A stretch of 64,000 bases of DNA from Myxococcales bacterium. Lineage in GTDB: Bacteria; Myxococcota_A; UBA9042. This document shows, piece after piece, positions 3 through 54,478 of this stretch. Where the stretch lies: NCBI GenBank assembly GCA_037441385.1, contig JBBISH010000010.1, positions 1 to 64,000 of the forward strand, read 5' to 3'. A program made the translations under genes and the position numbers. The notes beneath the pieces were generated by a model. The model saw only the letters and a list, made by a program, of their open reading frames with translations. It searched no databases and was not told the origin of the DNA. How positions within the stretch are numbered: position 1 is the stretch's first letter; each line of letters begins with the position of its first letter.

Positions 3-2564
3 TCTTCCGATCCCACGCGCTTCTACCCGGTCTATGGCGACGCCTCGACCCAGGTGCAGGACGTGCAGGCGCGCGGCAAGCTGTACGTGCTGGTCGAAGC
101 GGATCAGGGCAAGCTGCAGCTGGGCAATTTCCGCGCGACCGTGCAGGGCATCGAGCTGCTGCGCTACGACCGCGCGCTGTACGGCGCCAAGGTCGAGGCC
201 AAGCTGGGCGCCGCCGGCAGCGAGACCAAGGCGAGTATTTTCGCAGCGATGCAGGACAAGGCGGTGGCGCGGCGGAGCGACGTGCTGCGCGGCACCGGCG
301 GCTCGCTGTACTACACCAGCGGGCGCGATCTGCTGGAAGGCAGCGAAAAGGTGGAGTTGGTCGTCCGCGACCGCAGCTCGGGCCTGGAGATCTCGCGCAT
401 CGCCCAGACCCGCAACACCGACTACACCATCGACTACCGCGAGGGCCGCATCCTGTTCAAGTCGCCGGTGCAGAGCGCGCTCGACGGCTCGTTTGGCATG
501 ATGCAGACCGGCCTGGCCGGCGGGCACCTGTCGTGGAACGGCCAGCCGATCTACGTGGAAGTGGTGTACGAGTCGCGCAGCGTGCAGTCGACCGACGATG
601 CGGCCTTTGGCGGTCAAATCAAGCAGAACCTGGGCCCAGTTACGCTGGGCGCGGGCTACGTGCAAGAAGGCCGCGGCGAGGCGGATCCCACCTTCCGCAG
701 CGTGGGGGCCGACGCCAGCGTCAAGATCGGTCAGCGTGGCAAGGCCACCCTGGAGTATGCCTATAGCCAATCGCGGGATACGCGTCTGTCGGTGAGCGAC
801 GACGGCGGCCTGACCTTTGGCGCGCCGGTGAGCCAAGCGGTGGCGGGCAAGGCCGTAGAAGGCCAGGCGGTCAAGGCGCAAGTGGAAGTGGCGCTTGCGG
901 ATCTGGTCGGCAAGCCGGCGGATCTGCCCAAGGACACCACGCCGACGGACCCGGGTCGCGTGCGCGCCTTCTACCAGTGGGTGCAGCCGGGCTTCCAGTC
1001 GGGCGGTACCATCGCCCAGCAGGGTCAGCAGCGCTTTGGCGTGGACTCGCAGACGGCACTCAGCCCCAAGAACACGCTGACGGTGCGGTACGACGGCCTG
1101 ATCGCCGACGGTAACCAAACTGCGCCGTTTGCTGGGCCGGGTACGCAGTCGCAGTGGGGCGTGGGACCGCTGGCCACCTCGGGCTCGTTCTCAGCCTGGA
1201 CCCACCACTCGGTGGTGCTGCAAGACGCACATAAGCTGGATGCCAAGTGGACCGCGACCGGCGGTGCCGGCTGGGGCTGGAGCTTGAGCGGCGACAACAG
1301 CAGCAACCAGAGCGCCACCGTGGCCTTGGGCGCCGCCTACCGGGCAACCGACCGCCTGACCCTGCGCGGCGATCAGCAAGTGGTGGCGATGGGCGATCCC
1401 TCGCTGGTGCGCGATTGGGGCGACCGCATGATTTCGTCGCTGGGCGCGGAGTACAAGCTGGACAAGACCCTGGCCCTGACGCTGACCGAGCGGCTGGGCT
1501 GGGCGGGCCAGAACTCGACGGCGGCCGGTCTGCGCACCTACATCGACAAGGACACGGCGATCTACGCGCAACAGCGGCTGGAAGACACCCTGCAGACCGG
1601 GCGGCCAGTCAGCGCCACCGTGTTGGGCGCCGAGTCGCGCTACGGGGCCGACCAGTTGAGCCGCGCCTACGCCGAGTACCAAGTCGACGCGCTGAACAGC
1701 GGCGCCATGAACCGCGCCACCATGGGCGTGGGCAAGCGCTTCCTGGTGGCGCCGGGCCTGACGCTGGACGCCGGCTACGAGCGGCAGCAAGTGTTCTCGG
1801 GGCCGAGCGGGACGCTGGGCCGCGATGCGCTGAGCGTGGGCGGCGAGTGGCTGCGGCCCGAGTGGTGGAAGGTGACGACCCGCCAAGAAGTCCGCATGGA
1901 CTCGGCAGATGCCGGCACGGGTGCTCAGCAGAAGTTGCAGGTACTGAGCCTGAACAACGGCCAGCTGATGGTCAGCCGCAGCCTGACGCTGTTTGTGCGC
2001 GCCAACTACCTGCGCACCCAGAACCAGACCCTGAACACGACCGAGACCGAGTCGCTCGAGTCGACCCTGGGCTTGGCGCTGCGGCCGGTGCACACCAACT
2101 GGCTCAACCTCATTGGCAAGCTGACGCGGTTGGCCGAGCTGCGGCCGGCGACGACCGAGACCGGGCCGCAAGAGCGCTCGGACAAGTGGATCGCTGCGCT
2201 GGAGCCGACCGCCGAGCTGCCGTACCGGCTGCAGCTGTCGCTGAAGGGCGCGTTCCAGCGCAGCACCGAGCTGCTGACCGACCTGTACCAGAGCCACGCG
2301 GTCGACAAGGTGCTGGGCGTGGCGCGGATGGGCTGGCACGCGAGCCAAGTGGTGGACGTGGCGGCCGAATACCGCTACCTGACCACGCCGCAGCTGGGCG
2401 ACAGCAAGCACGGCGCCCTGCTCGAGACCGCCTACCTGATTGCCAAGGCGGTGCGCGTGGGTGTGGGCTACAACTTCAGCCACATCGTCCAGACGCCGCA
2501 AGGGGCGATTCAAGAGACTAGCAGCCCCGGCGGGTTCTACGTGCGGCTGCTGGGCATGTACTAG
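3..2564 (+). CDS. Large outer-membrane beta-barrel protein, C-terminal part (5' truncated by window edge)
   Basis: Frame is open from base 3 (SSDPTRFYPVYGDAS...GKLYV). It has alternating amphipathic strands throughout and a terminal strand GFYVRLLGMY. The YPVYGD motif resembles large DUF11/OmpA-associated outer-membrane proteins. Confidence 0.8.
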   Translation, partial: SSDPTRFYPVYGDASTQVQDVQARGKLYVLVEADQGKLQLGNFRATVQGIELLRYDRALYGAKVEAKLGAAGSETKASIFAAMQDKAVARRSDVLRGTGGSLYYTSGRDLLEGSEKVELVVRDRSSGLEISRIAQTRNTDYTIDYREGRILFKSPVQSALDGSFGMMQTGLAGGHLSWNGQPIYVEVVYESRSVQSTDDAAFGGQIKQNLGPVTLGAGYVQEGRGEADPTFRSVGADASVKIGQRGKATLEYAYSQSRDTRLSVSDDGGLTFGAPVSQAVAGKAVEGQAVKAQVEVALADLVGKPADLPKDTTPTDPGRVRAFYQWVQPGFQSGGTIAQQGQQRFGVDSQTALSPKNTLTVRYDGLIADGNQTAPFAGPGTQSQWGVGPLATSGSFSAWTHHSVVLQDAHKLDAKWTATGGAGWGWSLSGDNSSNQSATVALGAAYRATDRLTLRGDQQVVAMGDPSLVRDWGDRMISSLGAEYKLDKTLALTLTERLGWAGQNSTAAGLRTYIDKDTAIYAQQRLEDTLQTGRPVSATVLGAESRYGADQLSRAYAEYQVDALNSGAMNRATMGVGKRFLVAPGLTLDAGYERQQVFSGPSGTLGRDALSVGGEWLRPEWWKVTTRQEVRMDSADAGTGAQQKLQVLSLNNGQLMVSRSLTLFVRANYLRTQNQTLNTTETESLESTLGLALRPVHTNWLNLIGKLTRLAELRPATTETGPQERSDKWIAALEPTAELPYRLQLSLKGAFQRSTELLTDLYQSHAVDKVLGVARMGWHASQVVDVAAEYRYLTTPQLGDSKHGALLETAYLIAKAVRVGVGYNFSHIVQTPQGAIQETSSPGGFYVRLLGMY

Positions 2565-2634
2565 AACACCAATCACAAATCTCCGAGGTTCAGAGCAACG
2601 AGACCACTCGCTGACGAAAACTCGTTGATGCTCA

Positions 2635-2766
2635 TACGAACCCCGTCTGATTCACGCCTGTACGGCTTCTCTGACCCGGTCTGCAACCGGCGAGAATCAG
2701 GCGGGGACCCCGGTTCGGGCCCGAAGAATTGCCCGAGTTTTCGATCCGATTCGGACGGAACTGGTA
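2635..2766 (+). mobile_element. 132-bp MITE-like repeat, copy A (full length)
   Basis: TACGAACCCC...GGAACTGGTA. Near-identical to 42057-42188 and to the reverse complement of 54238-54369. Flanks TCA/TTA. Confidence 0.85.
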
Positions 2767-2951
2767 TTACTGCTCATTATGTTCAGAATTTGCCTCACTT
2801 GTCCGCGTCCCCAGCCCCAAGTGGGGCGCAGGCGAGCGCCTGGGTCGAATTGGCCAGGCGGCGTCTGCTGGTTTGGGCTTGACGGCCAAATCGGTTGACG
2901 GCATGGTGGGTTCCACAGGGTGCGCCGAGTGAGCCACCTGTGGAGCGGCCG

Positions 2952-4811
2952 ATGACGGAGCCAAACCTGTCCACGTCGGCCGTGCTGCGCGTCCGCGCCG
3001 CAACCAGGTGCTGGGTTTTGGCGCTCGGCTGGGTCGCACTGGTCTGCGCCGCGCCGACCGCCCTTGCCCTGGAACCCGACCGGCTGGTCGGCTCAGTGGC
3101 TCTGGCGGGGTTGTTTCCCGGGGCGCTGCAGCGACCAGTCTACTGGTCTGGCACGTCCAAGCCGGTCGGCCAGGACTATGCCATTGGCCTGCGCGCCCGC
3201 GCTTCGCTGTCCCGCTTGGGCGTGGGTCTGCGGGCGGATCTGAACAGTGTGCCAGACGGGCGCGCGTACGGCCGCTTGCTGGCCGAGGCGCACAGCGCCT
3301 ACGTGATGGGCGGCGTGGGCTTGGGCGTGCTGCCGGGCATTGGCTCGAATTGGGCGGTGCGCTTGCCGATGTGGCTCCAGGTGGGCACGCCGGCCCTGCA
3401 TGTGCGGGCGCGGGTGCGCGACGGCGGGCCCACGGTCGACCCCCGCGATGCCTTTGCCATTGCGGTGGGAACGCAGCAGGCTGTGCTCAGTTCGCGAATG
3501 TCTGCCGAGCTGGGCTGGGGCACCACTGTGGTCGGCTCCGGGCCCGAACTGACCTTGGCGGCGGGCTATTCGCACTGGGTGGGCCTTTTGCAGGTGCGGC
3601 AGTTGGGCGAGACCGACCAGGGGACCCGCGTGTGGCAGGTGGGGGTGGCGCTGCAAATGAGCATGACGGCGGAGATCCCTGGAACGGCTGTGCCAGAGAT
3701 GGACGAAGTGGCCGCGGTCGAGGTGGGGCCTGTGGCCGAGACGATGGACCAGGTGCTGCAGCCGGGGACCCTGCTCAAGCTCGTCACCAAGCGCAACGCG
3801 CGTGGCGCCGAAAGCCAGACGGCCCTCTGCCTCGCCGACGAGGCCACCCAGGCCGGCGACGAGACCTGGTATCACCTGACCTGTTCGCCGGAATTGCCCA
3901 GCAACAGCCCGCCGGCCTGGCGCACGGGCTGCTACGTGGTGCGACAAGAGGGGATCTGGCGTATGCCGGCTTGCCCCGGCGAGGCACGTCCCAGCGGCGT
4001 CCGCGCGGAACTGATCGTCCCCGCAAACTTGTCCGAAGTCAGCAACAAGTTCATCGACCTTGGTGCGCTCGCCAGCCAACCGCGGACGTTCCGCATCGAC
4101 GGCGCGACGGTCGAGGCCGCTTGCGTTGTGCGCGCAACGGAGCGCGTCACCGAGACCTGTTACGCCGCCAACCTGGGGCTGGTCTGGTCGGCTTGGTACT
4201 GGCCCGCCCGCAACGGGGGCAACGGCGAGGCCCGCGCCGTCAAGCTGGTGGGCGTGGCGCGCGACATGCCCATCGACGACAGTGCGCCGCACCTGCGCGG
4301 CTTGCAGGACAACAGCGCCAAGTGTCTGTTTGGCGCGAGCTGCGCGATGTTTGGCCAATGCAGCGTAGTGCACGAGGAATGCCAGGCCCGCAGTCGCGCC
4401 GACTGCACTCAGTCGGCCGTATGCGCACGCTGGGGGCGCTGCACTCCCAAGCGGGGGGCCTGCGTGGCCGCCACCAGCGACGACTGTGTCAAGTCGTTGG
4501 ACTGCCAAGAAAATGGCGCCTGTTCCGTCGACGGCGACCGCTGCGTAGCCCGCGGCCCGGATTGCGTCGCCACACCCGCATGCCGGTTGCTGGGGCGCTG
4601 CACGGCGGTGGCTGGCCGGTGTCGCCTGGTCAGCGATGCCGACTGCCGCACCTCACAGCAGTGCCAGCGCGACGGCCAATGCCACCTGCGCGGCGGCATC
4701 TGCTGGGCCAACGACGACGCGGATTGCGCCGCCAGCGAAGGCTGCACCGCATTTGGCCAGTGCCGGGCCCAAGACGGTCGCTGTACCAGCGACAGCGATG
4801 AGGCGCCATGA
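2952..4811 (+). CDS. Secreted protein with beta-rich N-terminal domain and six C-terminal 4-Cys repeats
   Basis: ATG 2952 follows GGAG. Signal-peptide-like segment ends ...PTALA. Repeats C-x5-C-x3-G-x-C-x6-C lie at 4323-4784. Stop overlaps the next start (ATGA). Confidence 0.8.
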   Translation: MTEPNLSTSAVLRVRAATRCWVLALGWVALVCAAPTALALEPDRLVGSVALAGLFPGALQRPVYWSGTSKPVGQDYAIGLRARASLSRLGVGLRADLNSVPDGRAYGRLLAEAHSAYVMGGVGLGVLPGIGSNWAVRLPMWLQVGTPALHVRARVRDGGPTVDPRDAFAIAVGTQQAVLSSRMSAELGWGTTVVGSGPELTLAAGYSHWVGLLQVRQLGETDQGTRVWQVGVALQMSMTAEIPGTAVPEMDEVAAVEVGPVAETMDQVLQPGTLLKLVTKRNARGAESQTALCLADEATQAGDETWYHLTCSPELPSNSPPAWRTGCYVVRQEGIWRMPACPGEARPSGVRAELIVPANLSEVSNKFIDLGALASQPRTFRIDGATVEAACVVRATERVTETCYAANLGLVWSAWYWPARNGGNGEARAVKLVGVARDMPIDDSAPHLRGLQDNSAKCLFGASCAMFGQCSVVHEECQARSRADCTQSAVCARWGRCTPKRGACVAATSDDCVKSLDCQENGACSVDGDRCVARGPDCVATPACRLLGRCTAVAGRCRLVSDADCRTSQQCQRDGQCHLRGGICWANDDADCAASEGCTAFGQCRAQDGRCTSDSDEAP

Positions 4812-20022: not shown

Positions 20023-21828
20023 TCAGCGCGCGGTGCCAGCTTGGCGCTGCTTGCGCAAGACTTGGGCACGCTGCCGTTGCCGCCCGAGTCGCTCGGCCGC
20101 CAGCGTCAGCAGCTTCTGTGCCCGTTCGGCCTGCTCGCCTTCCACATCGCGCGCCAGGGCTTGCGCGGCGTGCTCCACCGCACCGGCCCAGTCGCCTTCG
20201 CGCAGGCAGCAGTCGGCCAGGTTCAAATACCCTTGCCAATGCTCGGGGTTGGCCTGCACGGCTCGCTCGTACGCCTGCCGAGCCGCCGCAAACTCGCCCG
20301 CCGCCCAATACAGGTCGCCCAGGCTGTTCCACGTGCCCGCCGCGTACCACGGATTGATGCGCAGCGCCTCGGTCAGCAGAGTCTGCGCCAACCCCAGTTC
20401 GCGGTTGCGCCGCAGGGCCACGTCGCCTGCCTCGCCCAGCAGCAGCCAATTGTCGCGCTCGACCAGCAGGGCCTGGCGGTAGGCCTCTAGCGCCGCGCGC
20501 GGATCTTTGCCCACCAACTCGCGGGCTTGCGCCATCAGGGCTTCCAGGCGTTCAAAGGCGCGTTGGTCAAAATGCAGGGCGAACGCCGCGCGCGTGGCGG
20601 GCAGTGCCGCGTGGCTGACCAGGCGGGTCTTGATCGACGCTTCGCCTTCGCCTGGCGGCAGGCTGACTTGTGCCCCGCGCCCGCCCAGTTCCGTCGACCG
20701 CTGCAGCCAGGCATCCAGCGCAAAGTGGTTGATGCCCGACGCGGTCGTGGCGCCGTAGTGCTGGTACAGGTGATTGCCGTTGGCGCGCGCGGCCGTGGCC
20801 GGCCCATAGTCCCGGTACAGCACAAAGCCGCTTGGGCGCAGGGCTTGCAGCTGCAGCGCCAGGCTATGCTGGGCACCGGCCGAGTGAAGCACCCAGACGT
20901 ACTCGTCTTCGCCTTCGGGCACGGGCGGCAGCGCCGCGGTCAATTGATCCGCGATGCGGCGTAGTTCCGGGCCCTCGCCGATGCCATCGGGATCGAAGGG
21001 CGCCAGCGCCAGCACCAGATCGAACAGCGGATACAGCTGCACCAGTTGGGCCAGGGCCGCGGCGTCGCGCTGCTGCGCCAATGCGTGCACCTGTTCGGGG
21101 CTGAGCGCAGAGAACAGCTGCAGATCGGCCACCTTGTCGAGCATGGTCTGGGCAACCACCGCGCCCCAACTTTCGGCGCGGTCCGGGCCGGTCTTGCTGC
21201 GGCGGAACAGGTTGGCCGGCAAGACGCACAGCAAGTAAGTGTGGAAGATCGCTCGCAAACGCCCGGTCAGCTCGATGGTGGTGCCGTCGTCCAGGCGGCG
21301 CAGGTGGGTCGGATCCAGTGCGTCGACCACCGCCAGCACCACGCGGCCGGCGTGACGCTCGAACACTCCGTTTTTCTGAGCGTCCTGCACCATCCGCGGC
21401 GTGCCATCGCTGGCGTACCAAGTCAGGCGATCGTAGTAGTCGCGGCCATGTTCGCGGCACAGCGCGGCAAAGCGGTCGAGCAGCTGCAGCGAGAACAGGC
21501 CCAGGCCAATCGCGAGTTCCAGGCAGGTGATGTCCTGCTCCAGCTCGCCGGCCTGATCCAGCTCCACACAGTTGGCAAAGAGCACTTCGGCGGCGCGGTA
21601 GGCCGACAGCCCGCCTTGGTTGATCAGGTTGGGCACCTGCTGCGAGGTAAAGGCCTGAGTCCCGCGTTGGCCAAACGCGAGCTGGCCCATCTGGAAATCC
21701 AGGCAGCGGTGCAGCGGGGTCCAGTCTTCTAGCAGCAGGGGTGCGGGGGTCTCGGCCGCCGCAGTCGGCTCGCCGGTCGTTTCGGCCGCAGGCGCATCTT
21801 GGGGGGCGGTCTCGGGCTTGTCGGACAT
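20023..21828 (-). CDS. SAM-dependent methyltransferase-like (MidA-type) domain plus TPR protein
   Basis: GAGGTG RBS then ATG 21828. VPNLIN and CLELAIGLG resemble motif I; C-terminal TPRs (AYRQAL, WNSLGDLY, YLNLAD). Confidence 0.75.
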   Translation of the reverse strand: MSDKPETAPQDAPAAETTGEPTAAAETPAPLLLEDWTPLHRCLDFQMGQLAFGQRGTQAFTSQQVPNLINQGGLSAYRAAEVLFANCVELDQAGELEQDITCLELAIGLGLFSLQLLDRFAALCREHGRDYYDRLTWYASDGTPRMVQDAQKNGVFERHAGRVVLAVVDALDPTHLRRLDDGTTIELTGRLRAIFHTYLLCVLPANLFRRSKTGPDRAESWGAVVAQTMLDKVADLQLFSALSPEQVHALAQQRDAAALAQLVQLYPLFDLVLALAPFDPDGIGEGPELRRIADQLTAALPPVPEGEDEYVWVLHSAGAQHSLALQLQALRPSGFVLYRDYGPATAARANGNHLYQHYGATTASGINHFALDAWLQRSTELGGRGAQVSLPPGEGEASIKTRLVSHAALPATRAAFALHFDQRAFERLEALMAQARELVGKDPRAALEAYRQALLVERDNWLLLGEAGDVALRRNRELGLAQTLLTEALRINPWYAAGTWNSLGDLYWAAGEFAAARQAYERAVQANPEHWQGYLNLADCCLREGDWAGAVEHAAQALARDVEGEQAERAQKLLTLAAERLGRQRQRAQVLRKQRQAGTAR

Positions 21829-41786: not shown

Positions 41787-41906
41787 GGACGCCTCCTTGG
41801 GGATCATGAAGTTCTCTGTGACTTTTGCGACCACCCGGCGCCGTGTCAAATGGCGCGCTCCGCAGCATGACATTTTGATCCGACTGTACACACCCAGCCG
41901 AAATCA

Positions 41907-41971
41907 TACGGATTCCGTCTAGATCGGCTGGTGAATTCCGGCAATTCTTCGGGCCCGAACCGGGGTTCGTA
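41907..41971 (-). mobile_element. MITE-like repeat, copy E (65-bp internal-deletion form)
   Basis: Both termini retained (TACGGATTCC...GGGGTTCGTA); flanked by TCA (41904-41906) and TCA (41972-41974). Confidence 0.8.
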
Positions 41972-42056
41972 TCAGAGCGAGTTCTAGCGAGCTGGGCGGC
42001 CGCAACTCCTGGGCGCACTGCGTCCCTGGGGGAGCGGAACGGCTTGCCTGCCCTCC

Positions 42057-42188
42057 TACGCGCCCCACCTGATTCGCGCCTACACGGCTTTTCTGACCCG
42101 CCCTGCAACTGGCGAGAATCAGGCGGGGACCCCGGTTCGGGCCCGAAAAATCGCCCGTGTTTTCGATCCGATTCGGATGGAACTGGGA
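42057..42188 (+). mobile_element. 132-bp MITE-like repeat, copy B
   Basis: Colinear with copy A; flanks TCC/TCA. Confidence 0.85.
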
Positions 42189-42267
42189 TCAGCCGTCCGG
42201 GGCACTTGCCTGGCAAAACCAGCAAGATATTCTCGCACTCGCCGGTGATCCGGTTGCGAGAGTCGTC

Positions 42268-46664: not shown

Positions 46665-48254
46665 ATGGCTTCTTTGGTCGGCAAGCGCTTCGGCCGCTAC
46701 GAGGTCGAAGAGAAGATTGCGTCCGGCGGCATGGCCGAGGTTTGGCGCGCGCGCCTGACTGGCAGCGCCGGCTTCGAGAAGCAGGTCGCGCTGAAGATGC
46801 TGCATCCCGAGCTGTGCGAGATCGAAGACTTGGTGCAGTTGTTCATCGGCGAAGCGGCGATGGCGGCCGAGATCAACCACCCCAACGTGGTCCAGGTATT
46901 CGACTTTGGCTGTGCCGACGGGCGCTACTTCATGGCCATGGAGTACGTTGCCGGCTGGTCGCTGCGGCGTCTGCTGCAGTCGATCCAGCAGACCCCCGAG
47001 CGGCGCTTGCCGTATTGGGCCCTGCTGGAGGTGGCGCTGCATGTCTGCGAAGGCCTTGAGCATATTCACGCTTTTCACGACAGCCACGGCAAGCCGATGG
47101 GCCTGGTGCACCGCGACGTCTCGCCCGAGAACGTCATGATCTCGTGGACGGGCGCGGTCAAGCTCATTGATTTTGGCGTGGCACGGGTGGTCGAGGCAGC
47201 TGGCAAAGCCAGCGGGCCGGTGACGGGCAAGCCGCGCTACATGGCGCCCGAGCAGGCGCTGGGTCTGGATCTAGACGCCCGCGCCGACGTGTTTTCGCTG
47301 GGCGTGGTGCTGTTTGCCTGCGCCACGGGCCGCCTGCCGTTTTCGGGACCCGATGCCCAGCAAGTGATGGAGGCGGTGGTGCAGGGCGACCGCCTGCCAG
47401 TGACGATGCTCAACCCCAGGGCGCACCCGGCCTTGGTGGACCTGATCGATCAGGCCATGACGACCGACCGCGGCGAGCGGACGCCCAGCACGGCCGTGTT
47501 GCGCGAGCACCTGCTGCTGTGGGCCCACGCGGCTGGCCTGGACCCTACGATGCGGCAGTTGGGCCAGTTGCTGGCCGCCTTGGCGCACGCCGACGACGAA
47601 CTGCCGGCGGCCCTCCACGGGCAAGTGCAGGGCAAGTCACTGTCCGTCTTGCTAGACGATTGGGCCAACCATCACCCGCCGTGGGCGGCGCCGACCGCCT
47701 GGAGCGGCGGAGCCGAGCCCGCCGCCCCTGGGGCTGCCCGTGTCGGGGCGGATTTGGCCGACTCGGATCGGAGCCCCGCGCCCTTCTCTGGACCCGGCGT
47801 GGGATCTTCGTCTGATTCTCGCCCATTGCAGAACGGGTCAGAGAAACCGTACCGGGCTGAATCGGCTGGGGTGCGCGTCAGTGGCAGCTTTGAACCGCGC
47901 AGCTACCACCAGACCAACACCAACCTGGGCCCGGCCAGTCGGCCGTACGCCACGCCGCCGCCGCAGGTCGTGCATCCCCAGCCCGCGGCCGCTCTGTATG
48001 TGGACGAAGTCGACCTGTTCCTAGAGATTTGCGAGACAAAGCCGCCAGTTCAGGGGCACGAGCCCGCGCCGGAGTCCATCGCACCGGTGTCCATCGCGCC
48101 GGTGTCCATCGCGCCGGAGTCCATCGCACCGGAGTCCATCGCACCGGTGCGCCCCGATGGGATCGCTGAACCCCTTGCGGGGGCCGACGTTCTGGACATC
48201 GAGGTCGAAGGAGGCCTTGTCCTCGATCTTGTGTTGGCGCCCGACGCGGCCTAG
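46665..48254 (+). CDS. Serine/threonine protein kinase
   Basis: IASGGMAEV, VALK, HRDVSPEN, DFG and YMAPE motifs; low-complexity tail. Confidence 0.95.
   Translation: MASLVGKRFGRYEVEEKIASGGMAEVWRARLTGSAGFEKQVALKMLHPELCEIEDLVQLFIGEAAMAAEINHPNVVQVFDFGCADGRYFMAMEYVAGWSLRRLLQSIQQTPERRLPYWALLEVALHVCEGLEHIHAFHDSHGKPMGLVHRDVSPENVMISWTGAVKLIDFGVARVVEAAGKASGPVTGKPRYMAPEQALGLDLDARADVFSLGVVLFACATGRLPFSGPDAQQVMEAVVQGDRLPVTMLNPRAHPALVDLIDQAMTTDRGERTPSTAVLREHLLLWAHAAGLDPTMRQLGQLLAALAHADDELPAALHGQVQGKSLSVLLDDWANHHPPWAAPTAWSGGAEPAAPGAARVGADLADSDRSPAPFSGPGVGSSSDSRPLQNGSEKPYRAESAGVRVSGSFEPRSYHQTNTNLGPASRPYATPPPQVVHPQPAAALYVDEVDLFLEICETKPPVQGHEPAPESIAPVSIAPVSIAPESIAPESIAPVRPDGIAEPLAGADVLDIEVEGGLVLDLVLAPDAA
47746..47877 (-). 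mobile_element. Degenerate MITE-like copy F, in frame inside the kinase gene
   Basis: Colinear with copy D, e.g. CCGACTCGGATCG...CTGATTCTCGCC..TTGCAGAACGGGTCAGA...GGGGTGCG. Confidence 0.8.
48066..48149 (+). repeat. 15-bp coding tandem repeat P(E/V)SIA x5
   Basis: CCGGWGTCCATCGCR units. Confidence 0.9.
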
Positions 48255-48277
48255 AGACTCGACCAATCGTGGACTTC

Positions 48278-48428
48278 TACGCACCCCACCGGATTCGCGC
48301 CTGTAGGGCTTTCTGACCCGTTCTGACCCGTTCTGACCCGTTCTGCAACTGGCGAGAATCAGGCGGGGCCCCCGGACCGGGCCCGAAAGATTGCCCGTGT
48401 TTTCGATCCGATTCGGACGGAACTGGTA
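48278..48428 (+). mobile_element. MITE-like repeat, copy C (expanded)
   Basis: Flanked by TTC/TTC; TTCTGACCCG is present three times at 48311-48340. Confidence 0.85.
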
Positions 48429-48497
48429 TTCCACCCCCGACGACGCATCGACTGCGGCGGCGAGGGACCCTGAGTGCAGACCGGAGTTGCCGCTGAA

Positions 48498-48514: not shown

Positions 48515-48594
48515 AATGGTCGACGCACTTTGGCGGTGGCGGTCGCTGGCGGATCCCTCTGCGGGCGCGAGGCCGTGACGATGGCCTCCACGGA

Positions 48595-48710
48595 GACCCA
48601 CCCCACCTCATTCGCGGCTGTACGGGTTCTATGACCCGTTCTGCAACGGGCGAAAATCAGGCGGGGACTCCGGTTCTGATCTGGAGAAATGCGCGGGTTG
48701 CCGATTCGCG
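48595..48710 (+). mobile_element. Degenerate MITE-like copy G
   Basis: CCCCACCTCATTCGCGGCTGTACGG...GGCGAAAATCAGGCGGGGACTCCGGTTC; ends eroded. Confidence 0.75.
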
Positions 48711-48742
48711 GAACGTTTCCGGGAGGAGTCGCCGCTTGGGAA

Positions 48743-53433: not shown

Positions 53434-54237
53434 GTGCCGCAACTCCCTGCCCTGGATAAGCTTCTGCCCCTGGCCCCGTGGCTCTGCCTGGCCCTGCTGC
53501 TGCCGCTGACCCAGCTGCTGGCGGCGTGGAGCAAGCGCCAGGTGGTACGCGCCCTGGGCTGGTGGGGCGTGCCTCTGACCACCGGCTGGCTGGGCGTGCC
53601 GGTGCACGAGGCCTCGCACCTGCTGGCCGCCAAGTTGTTGGGCCGAGAAGTGGTGCGCGTGCGCTGGTTTGCCCCGGACGCCGACTCGGGCAGCCTGGGC
53701 GGGGTGGAGTGGCGGCCGGGTCAAGGGCCGTTGGCGTGGCTGGCGATCTTGACGGTGGGTGTGGCGCCCCTGGCGGGCGGGACGCTGGCGCTGCGCGGAC
53801 TGCTGCTAGGCGCGGCGCTGGCTACGGATCTGCCCGTGCCAGCGATGCCGCAAGGCGCGGATGGGGCGGCCTGGCAGGCAGCCGGGCTGGCGCTGCTGCA
53901 CTGGGCGCAGGCGGCGACGGCGGCGCTCTGGAGCAGGCAAGATCCGTTGGCGTGGAGCGCCGTTTTGGGCTGGTGGGCGGTGGTCAGCGTGGCGGCGCAC
54001 CTGACGCCGTCGCGGCCGGACCTGCAGGGCGCTTGGCGCGGGGCCCTGCTAGTTGCGGCGCTTGTCGCTGTGGCGGTTGCGGGGCTCCAGGCGGCGCAAA
54101 TCCCCTGGCAGGACCCGGTGATGCACGCTGTCCGCGCGACGACATGGTGGCTCGCGCCGGGCCTGCTGCTCGCCCTGCCGGCGACGGTCACGGTGGGATT
54201 GACGGCAACGCTGTTGGCGCGCCTGCGCGGCCAGTGA
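53434..54237 (+). CDS. Membrane metalloprotease-like protein (M50-like)
   Basis: PVHEASH (HExxH), GVAPL and multiple TM segments. Confidence 0.75.
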   Translation: MPQLPALDKLLPLAPWLCLALLLPLTQLLAAWSKRQVVRALGWWGVPLTTGWLGVPVHEASHLLAAKLLGREVVRVRWFAPDADSGSLGGVEWRPGQGPLAWLAILTVGVAPLAGGTLALRGLLLGAALATDLPVPAMPQGADGAAWQAAGLALLHWAQAATAALWSRQDPLAWSAVLGWWAVVSVAAHLTPSRPDLQGAWRGALLVAALVAVAVAGLQAAQIPWQDPVMHAVRATTWWLAPGLLLALPATVTVGLTATLLARLRGQ

Positions 54238-54369
54238 TACCAATTCCGTCCGAATCGGATCGAAAACTCGGGCAATTCTTCGGGCCCGAACCGGGGTCCC
54301 CGCCTGATTCTCGCCAGTTGCAGAACGGGTCAGAAAAGCCGTACACGCGCGAATCAGGTGGGGTGCGTA
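54238..54369 (-). mobile_element. 132-bp MITE-like repeat, copy D
   Basis: Reverse orientation; flanked by TGA (54235-54237) and TGA (54370-54372). Confidence 0.88.
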
Positions 54370-54478
54370 TGACTCCGCGCAGCTGCGATCCGTGGTATGG
54401 TCCGCCGGCCAGCCCAGCCGCCCCTTGGTGTGGGCAAGCCGAGCGGCTCTGGGCCCTGGCCACACAAAGGAGCACCCG

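Follow-up and report, generated by a model that had tools for sequence, protein, structure and literature searches.

Elements of the IS1031/IS427-like group of the IS5 family duplicate the triplet TNA when they insert, as described in ISfinder, and the MITEs that belong with this TNA rule are small and gene-less, with inverted ends, a 3-bp TNA duplication, many copies and a mostly intergenic location. Some IS insert beside inverted-repeat ends or small repeats, as is seen in the IR-targeting of IS30 and IS911 and in the REP-targeting IS. MITEs that lie in frame inside genes, including the Rickettsia palindromic elements (RPEs), are already in print, and nearly half of the RPEs are located in ORFs according to the passages of PMC10969869 that deal with them. 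In the terms set out in a passage of PMC3542288, a MITE is of 'type II' if it resembles the inverted repeats of no IS in the same genome. As far as its main text goes, a RefSeq MITE census (PMC11602168) leaves the Myxococcota unmentioned, and no literature was found on MITEs in myxobacteria covering the family described below, nor on this family under IS5, IS1031 or TNA with MITE.

The element described here is a 132-bp repeat in the genome of an uncultured myxobacterium. The draft genome comprises 6.63 Mb in 221 contigs with 67% GC, and the assembly is without contigs shorter than 2.6 kb and without the IS interiors; the window corresponds to positions 1-64,000 of contig C10. The best explanation, considered as a whole to be probably correct, is that the repeat is a MITE, thus a non-coding, non-autonomous class II element, that it is moved by a DDE transposase acting in trans, that two smaller MITEs fused into its 132-bp form and that the enzyme likely belongs to the IS5 family. 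The repeat constitutes an undescribed family within a well-known kind of selfish DNA. All the properties listed above for the TNA MITEs of the IS5 family are found also here, and the same genome has an active IS5-family IS that duplicates TNA; the difference is in the ends, which begin with TAC in the MITE and with GAG or GGC in the resident IS and its relatives. The 132-bp MITE therefore fits the 'type II' class in the terms of that passage of PMC3542288.

Seven copies had been listed for the window in a preliminary description, and all are recovered at those positions by blastn and by an nhmmer family profile (Table 1). When window positions 2632-2769 are compared with the genome, the blastn matches in the window are 2632-2769, 54372-54237, 42054-42189, 48332-48430, 48600-48708, 47875-47758 and 41966-41913. 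Copy A is located between the genes 3..2564 and 2895..4811 and is 98-100% identical to ~33 other genomic copies (blastn). By direct reading, its terminal inverted repeats are imperfect, with 13 of 19 positions matching, as had been described, and the internal stem, the 12-bp palindrome TTCGGGCCCGAA and the TCCG-ATT-CGGA hairpin are likewise present. The flanks, given earlier as identical in three copies and as agreeing at two of three positions in two, read TCA/TCA (twice) and TTC/TTC in the former and TCA/TTA and TCC/TCA in the latter. The copy at 48278-48428 has a length of 151 bp because a 10-bp unit is triplicated in it (at 48310-48340). The 65-bp 'deleted copy' is a member of a separate short form with ~50 copies, and the left duplicate of the copy starting at 54235 (54235-54237, TGA on the + strand) is the stop codon of the gene 53434..54237. 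The core encodes no transposase, in agreement with the non-autonomous nature proposed earlier, and its open frames encode only ~44 residues; with one duplicate, the unit measures 135 bp, a multiple of three corresponding to 45 residues. A single stop-free frame had been noted for each orientation: open frames do exist in both, but there are two per strand rather than one, in copy A as well as in the consensus.

Table 1. Positions in the 64-kb window of the MITE copies, the adjoining second repeat and the kinase gene that hosts an eroded copy.
Feature	Position	Strand	Remarks
Second repeat, left half	2561..2631	+	Central TCA is the insertion site of copy A
Copy A	2632..2769, core 2635-2766	+	Flanks TCA and TTA; youngest subfamily
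Short form B copy	41904..41974, core 41907-41971	-	Flanks TCA/TCA
Full copy, older subfamily	42054..42191	+	Flanks TCC/TCA; 87.5% identical to copy A
Ser/Thr protein kinase, 578 aa	46518..48254	+	Host of eroded in-frame copy; Pkinase at residues 61-329
Eroded copy in Ser/Thr kinase gene	47743..47880	-	Found by blastn and profile
Full copy	48275..48431	+	Flanks TTC/TTC; internal 10-bp unit triplicated
Eroded copy	48592..48729	+	Profile positions 5-117; flanks no longer recognisable
Full copy	54235..54372	-	Flanks TCA/TCA on its own strand

The abundance that had been expected genome-wide is indeed observed, with 363 matches by blastn and 438 by nhmmer, using a profile built from 200 full copies. 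Near full length (at least 125 of the 138 profile positions) is reached by 291 of the 438 profile matches, and 43 of the 438 are within 200 bp of a contig end. The 19-nt end pattern has 212 matches, and the reversed-order control pattern has none. Clearly, the copy number is far above chance. The copies mostly fill intergenic gaps and are occasionally found in frame inside genes.

The 3-bp flanks are identical in 127 of the 261 full copies in which they are readable, and in 104 of the 164 best-preserved copies (at least 130 bits). TNA is present on both sides of 128 full copies, and the two triplets share the middle base in 116 of these, which is in agreement with the 3-bp duplication claimed earlier. 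All four TNA triplets are in use (TGA 51, TCA 43, TTA 12, TAA 10), and the 115 reconstructed target sites contain no information beyond the T and the A of the triplet and no palindromic symmetry. From the flank statistics of the full copies and from these reconstructed sites, it follows that the target is TNA rather than any triplet and that the 3-bp TNA is duplicated. With respect to age, the identity to copy A is at least 97% in 40 copies and 90-95% in 82 copies (blastn), and these identity classes point to at least two waves of copies. The mean pairwise identity of ten copies sampled from a sister species is 77%. An old wave is common to this genome and one sister species, and a recent burst, which generated copies that are 97-100% identical, is specific to this genome.

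The movement of the MITE is seen when considering a second, unrelated repeat family of ~190 bp, which has CTAG-bounded inverted ends and 49 genomic matches. The central TCA of this repeat is occupied by a MITE in 13 copies and by an IS5-family IS in one copy, and it is empty in ~34. The MITEs at this site are present in both orientations and belong to different subfamilies, and one filled copy shows TGA on both sides of the MITE. The filled and the empty copies, differing only at one TCA, show that the MITE has moved. Young MITEs are also found nested in older MITEs, at an internal TGA, and the kinase homologues without the 45 MITE-coded residues, described below, are further evidence of movement. 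As for the second repeat itself, further examples are at C67:23460, C84:9611 and C60:5946; it often begins exactly at the TAG stop of a gene, and in some copies (C3:27711, C4:128963) a 12-bp unit is present in tandem at the hot-spot TCA.

A clean orthologous empty site was not recovered for copy A or for the copy starting at 54235, as synteny breaks at both. The genes upstream of these copies are conserved in congeners (up to 91% identity), and the downstream sequence differs. Two congeners (L060/G007 and L061/G005) have the gene that ends at 2564 with 89-91% identity, and everything past its stop is different (2632-2900). The mismatched flanks of the young copy A, taken together with the synteny break, suggest a later, possibly repeat-mediated, rearrangement. 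No empty allele was found at two young copies of an 18-kb stretch in the contigs of four public runs; these contigs break at the young copies, none of them joins across a missing copy, and contigs hide rare alleles. The MITE is present in one of ten congeners, with 131 first-look candidates, and a single relic is found in a second congener. It was not found in the other genomes searched, namely 107 of the class and 401 sampled from the phylum (two candidates per genome scored). Among the genomes searched, the family was thus found only in this genus. Another genus of the same family, represented by G022, has 48-51 first-look candidates, compared with ~4-20 in other genomes. None of the candidates of G022 passed the scoring; they may be copies of a distant related repeat family.

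According to the proposed mechanism, a DDE transposase supplied in trans would cut or copy the gene-less MITE at its inverted ends and would insert it, by a staggered cut of 3 bp, at a TNA triplet, such that the TNA becomes duplicated on both sides. Most likely, the enzyme is of the IS5-family type (IS1031/IS427-like, the TNA-duplicating group). Ends common to the MITE and an IS5-family IS were not found, and no IS with the MITE ends is known. None is present in the assembly, where contigs shorter than 2.6 kb and IS interiors are absent and other transposases are therefore poorly tested, nor in the 107 class genomes or the 401 phylum genomes. The end pattern has 0 matches in viral contigs, and a pattern scan over all species gave no parent IS among the 10 matches listed, in which only one (L080) is a real MITE copy and the rest are chance end-only matches. 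The profiles DUF4096 and DDE_Tnp_4 have no match in the assembly, from which the IS interiors are missing. Two kinds of candidate parents were rejected. Six stray MITE left ends of the assembly belong to copies that are truncated or interrupted, without a non-MITE continuation, and the IS5-like elements of two congeners have ends of the GAGGG- or GGGAC-type.

The contig ends of the assembly cluster into several repeat families, and only one of these is followed by TNA. This is an IS with 16 ends, 8 left and 8 right (for example, at C156:1-190, C174:1-190, C116:1-126 and the end of C146; its interior is unassembled), and TNA comes next in all 16. Its C-terminal 56 residues match DDE_Tnp_1 and DDE_Tnp_1_2 weakly, below the cut-offs. 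A complete relative from another genus (L039) is ~1.2 kb long, has similar ends and a TAA duplication, and contains two frames, the first with HTH plus DUF4096 and the second with DDE_Tnp_1. On these resemblances, the resident IS is classified as an IS5-family element of the TNA-duplicating kind, and it is the only TNA-duplicating IS in the assembly. At least three further contig-end families (C140, C149, C195, C214 and C21; C154, C184, C186 and C29; C26, C38 and C43) have sharp boundaries without TNA; they are probably IS or mobile elements of other kinds. On C64 (~21584-21815), a MITE is interrupted by a GC-rich repeat that is short and has inverted ends.

The resident IS is not the parent of the MITE by descent, since its ends begin with GAGGGTG and those of the MITE with TAC, with ~2 of the first 13 bases in agreement by direct reading, and since the MITE profile does not match the assembled 125-190 bp of the IS ends. 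The two elements nevertheless meet in the genome. One IS copy, with its ends on C89 and C158, occupies the hot-spot TCA that is used by 13 MITEs. Moreover, 6 of the 16 IS ends adjoin the right end of a MITE across a single common TNA, and none adjoins a left end, in a genome where the MITE-flanking TNAs are a few hundred of ~127,000 TNA sites. The six MITEs belong to different subfamilies and have unique outer flanks, and each has kept its own duplication, from which it follows that the IS arrived later, and did so six times. When the IS ends are paired by their triplets, a total of 8-9 IS copies would account for them, and six of these adjoin a MITE. On C164, one IS end is 6 bp from a 13-nt relic resembling the end of the IS itself. 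Near-identical multicopy IS is found only in the genome with the recent MITE burst; in the sister species, the MITE is present as old copies, and no copy of the resident IS is detectable. This arrangement resembles that of the IR-targeting IS, in that exactly 3 bp, the length of one duplication, separate 6 of the 16 resident IS ends from a MITE end, and it differs from it in that the targeted MITE end is unrelated in sequence and the binding by the transposase is putative here.

It is possible, as a tentative reading, that the resident IS5-family element, which is the best candidate available, is the actual mobiliser of the MITE and acts on ends unlike its own. The case is circumstantial and is built on the common hot spot, the adjacency to MITE right ends and the co-occurrence with the recent burst. 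A more specific proposal, which on these sequence patterns seems rather unlikely, is that the resident transposase would recognise the MITE right end, that the IS would home to MITE ends in this way and that the same enzyme would have driven the recent burst. End-abutting pairs of MITEs are seen only 1-2 times, and this rarity of MITEs beside MITE right ends makes it less likely that a single enzyme serves both elements. The main rival to mobilisation by the resident IS is a dedicated parent IS with TAC... ends, either extinct or missing from the draft because it was collapsed or filtered, with the IS5-family element being a bystander; the chance of this is rated close to even, though short of it. 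MITEs usually have ends in common with their parent IS and those of the resident candidate are unrelated, an assembly lacking contigs shorter than 2.6 kb and all IS interiors could miss such a parent, and two IS groups obeying one target rule could have hot spots in common. Against it, no such end flanks non-MITE sequence in the assembly, none is found in the 107 class genomes or the 401 phylum genomes, and the six of 16 IS ends placed exactly on MITE right ends are left unexplained.

The imperfect ends can be understood from two shorter forms of the element. Form A is represented by several copies that cover only the left 75 bp, in a hairpin form with near-perfect 19-nt inverted ends and TNA flanks, and form B by the ~50 copies that cover only the right 65 bp, having their own left end and TNA flanks. 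When the long, A and B copies are aligned, the 132-bp form consists of A followed by B, and at the junction neither retains its inner end. From this alignment we infer that two smaller MITEs, the 75-bp form A and the 65-bp form B, fused to give the 132-bp form. The two forms would have been positioned head to tail, and the ends facing each other would then have been lost; the present termini would be the left end of A on one side and the right end of B on the other, and the internal stem would be what is left of the right end of A. Such a fusion would explain the imperfect ends, the long internal stem and the internal end-like motif.

The stem raises the alternative that the element is a functional structured RNA or DNA signal, of the REP, ERIC or terminator kind, acting in mRNA stability or termination. 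This is considered improbable. The + strand does form a strong hairpin (-56.5 kcal/mol, z = -2.6), whereas the opposite strand is no more stable than its shuffled versions (z = -0.9). In an alignment of 199 distinct copies, pairing is seen in 88% of the stem cells. This pairing is conserved by descent, with hardly any compensatory changes (no stem pair has them in more than 9 of the 199 rows), and one stem pair has an A-C mismatch in 121 of the 199 rows. No Rfam match is found in the window at the gathering score, and the best E-value in the 301 bp around copy A is 0.25. As judged from this alignment, the stem structure is inherited and bears no sign of selection as RNA. The target duplications and the empty sites, furthermore, show transposition.

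The gene context leads to the same conclusion, with the counts being based on a GC3-based heuristic ORF caller rather than a trained gene finder (84% of the genome being coding). By these calls, 185 of the 265 full copies are intergenic despite the high coding share, which shows that the copies avoid genes. Many copies are located just past stop codons and in convergent gaps, as would be expected of an RNA signal. In 41 of the 185 intergenic copies, including the window copy starting at 54235, the stop codon of a neighbour coincides with one duplicate; this placement is ~three times commoner than the 7.2% expected from the share of stop codons among the available TNA sites (p = 1e-10). Convergent gaps are enriched, with 59 of the 169 classifiable copies against 22% of the intergenic DNA by length, and divergent gaps are depleted, with 26 of the 169 against 25%. 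In tandem gene pairs there is no orientation bias, since 35 copies have the same orientation as the genes and 49 the opposite one. This pattern is characteristic of selfish DNA that selection has filtered, rather than of an RNA signal with an orientation. According to the heuristic calls, the stop codons of the genome are TAG in 2288, TGA in 1367 and TAA in 408 cases; this dominance of TAG is unusual at 67% GC and may be an artefact of the caller.

A gene-less derivative of the IS200/IS605 type (PATE), which a Y1 transposase would move in single-stranded form, would agree with the hairpin-rich structure and with a hot-spot TCA within a hairpin-like repeat, but IS200/IS605 elements are not known to have target duplications or inverted ends, and the 3-bp duplication in 116 of the 128 testable copies, the inverted ends, near-perfect in form A, and the hot-spot insertions in both orientations make it very improbable.

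Having set these alternatives against the MITE reading, we consider the copies of this MITE inside genes, for which a frame-preserving insertion had been claimed in the preliminary description. By the ORF calls, 42 of the 265 full-length copies are wholly inside an ORF, most of them at its extreme 5' end. At these 5' ends, the open frame of the element merely lengthens the ORF upstream, and in the five cases checked all Pfam domains are downstream of the element. Coding-like sequence is present on both sides in only two of the 42. The first is a CheA-like kinase with Hpt, HATPase_c, CheW and receiver domains. Three congeners have homologues of this kinase (36-43% identical), which can be aligned to the left and to the right of the element but are without exactly the 45 residues coded by the MITE; these residues fall between the DDGGG and GRGLGL motifs. 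The second is a 7TMR-DISM/PAS hybrid kinase, in which the HATPase_c match is split into profile positions 1-35 and 36-109. The third in-frame case is in the window at 47743-47880; this eroded copy matches the profile in truncated form, is not one of the 265 and encodes residues ~409-453 in the C-terminal tail of the Ser/Thr kinase (Table 1). In all three cases, the element is read in the same frame and on the same strand and contributes a peptide rich in Pro, Gly, Ser, Arg, Asp and Glu. Two more copies are read through near the 3' ends of genes, in a DSBA-like and in an HSDR_N-like ORF. Frame-preserving insertion is therefore real but rare, with three internal in-frame cases compared with 265 full-length copies. 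The idea of an element designed for coding was rejected, as the in-frame cases amount to ~1% of the copies. When compared with the RPEs as presented in those passages of PMC10969869, the likeness is in the length (135 bp, a multiple of three), the stop-free frames and the in-frame 45-residue hydrophilic segment in real proteins. The differences are that in-frame insertion is rare here (three internal cases and two C-terminal read-throughs, compared with 265 full-length copies) and that this element has a clear target duplication and inverted ends.

For the organism, this MITE accounts for much of the repeat content and for many of the contig breaks of the draft genome, it marks insertion hot spots, and it has added 45-residue segments to signalling kinases. 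Its copies merit masking in annotation, against the upstream over-extension of ORFs that is seen in the five cases checked. If the resident IS does act on the MITE, a 'type II' MITE would here be cross-mobilised in nature, and it would at the same time serve as a landing pad for the IS. The pattern of the IS beside the MITE is the one feature that is worth an experiment, and one active IS together with one abundant MITE having unlike ends is a tractable pair for the question of transposase cross-targeting.
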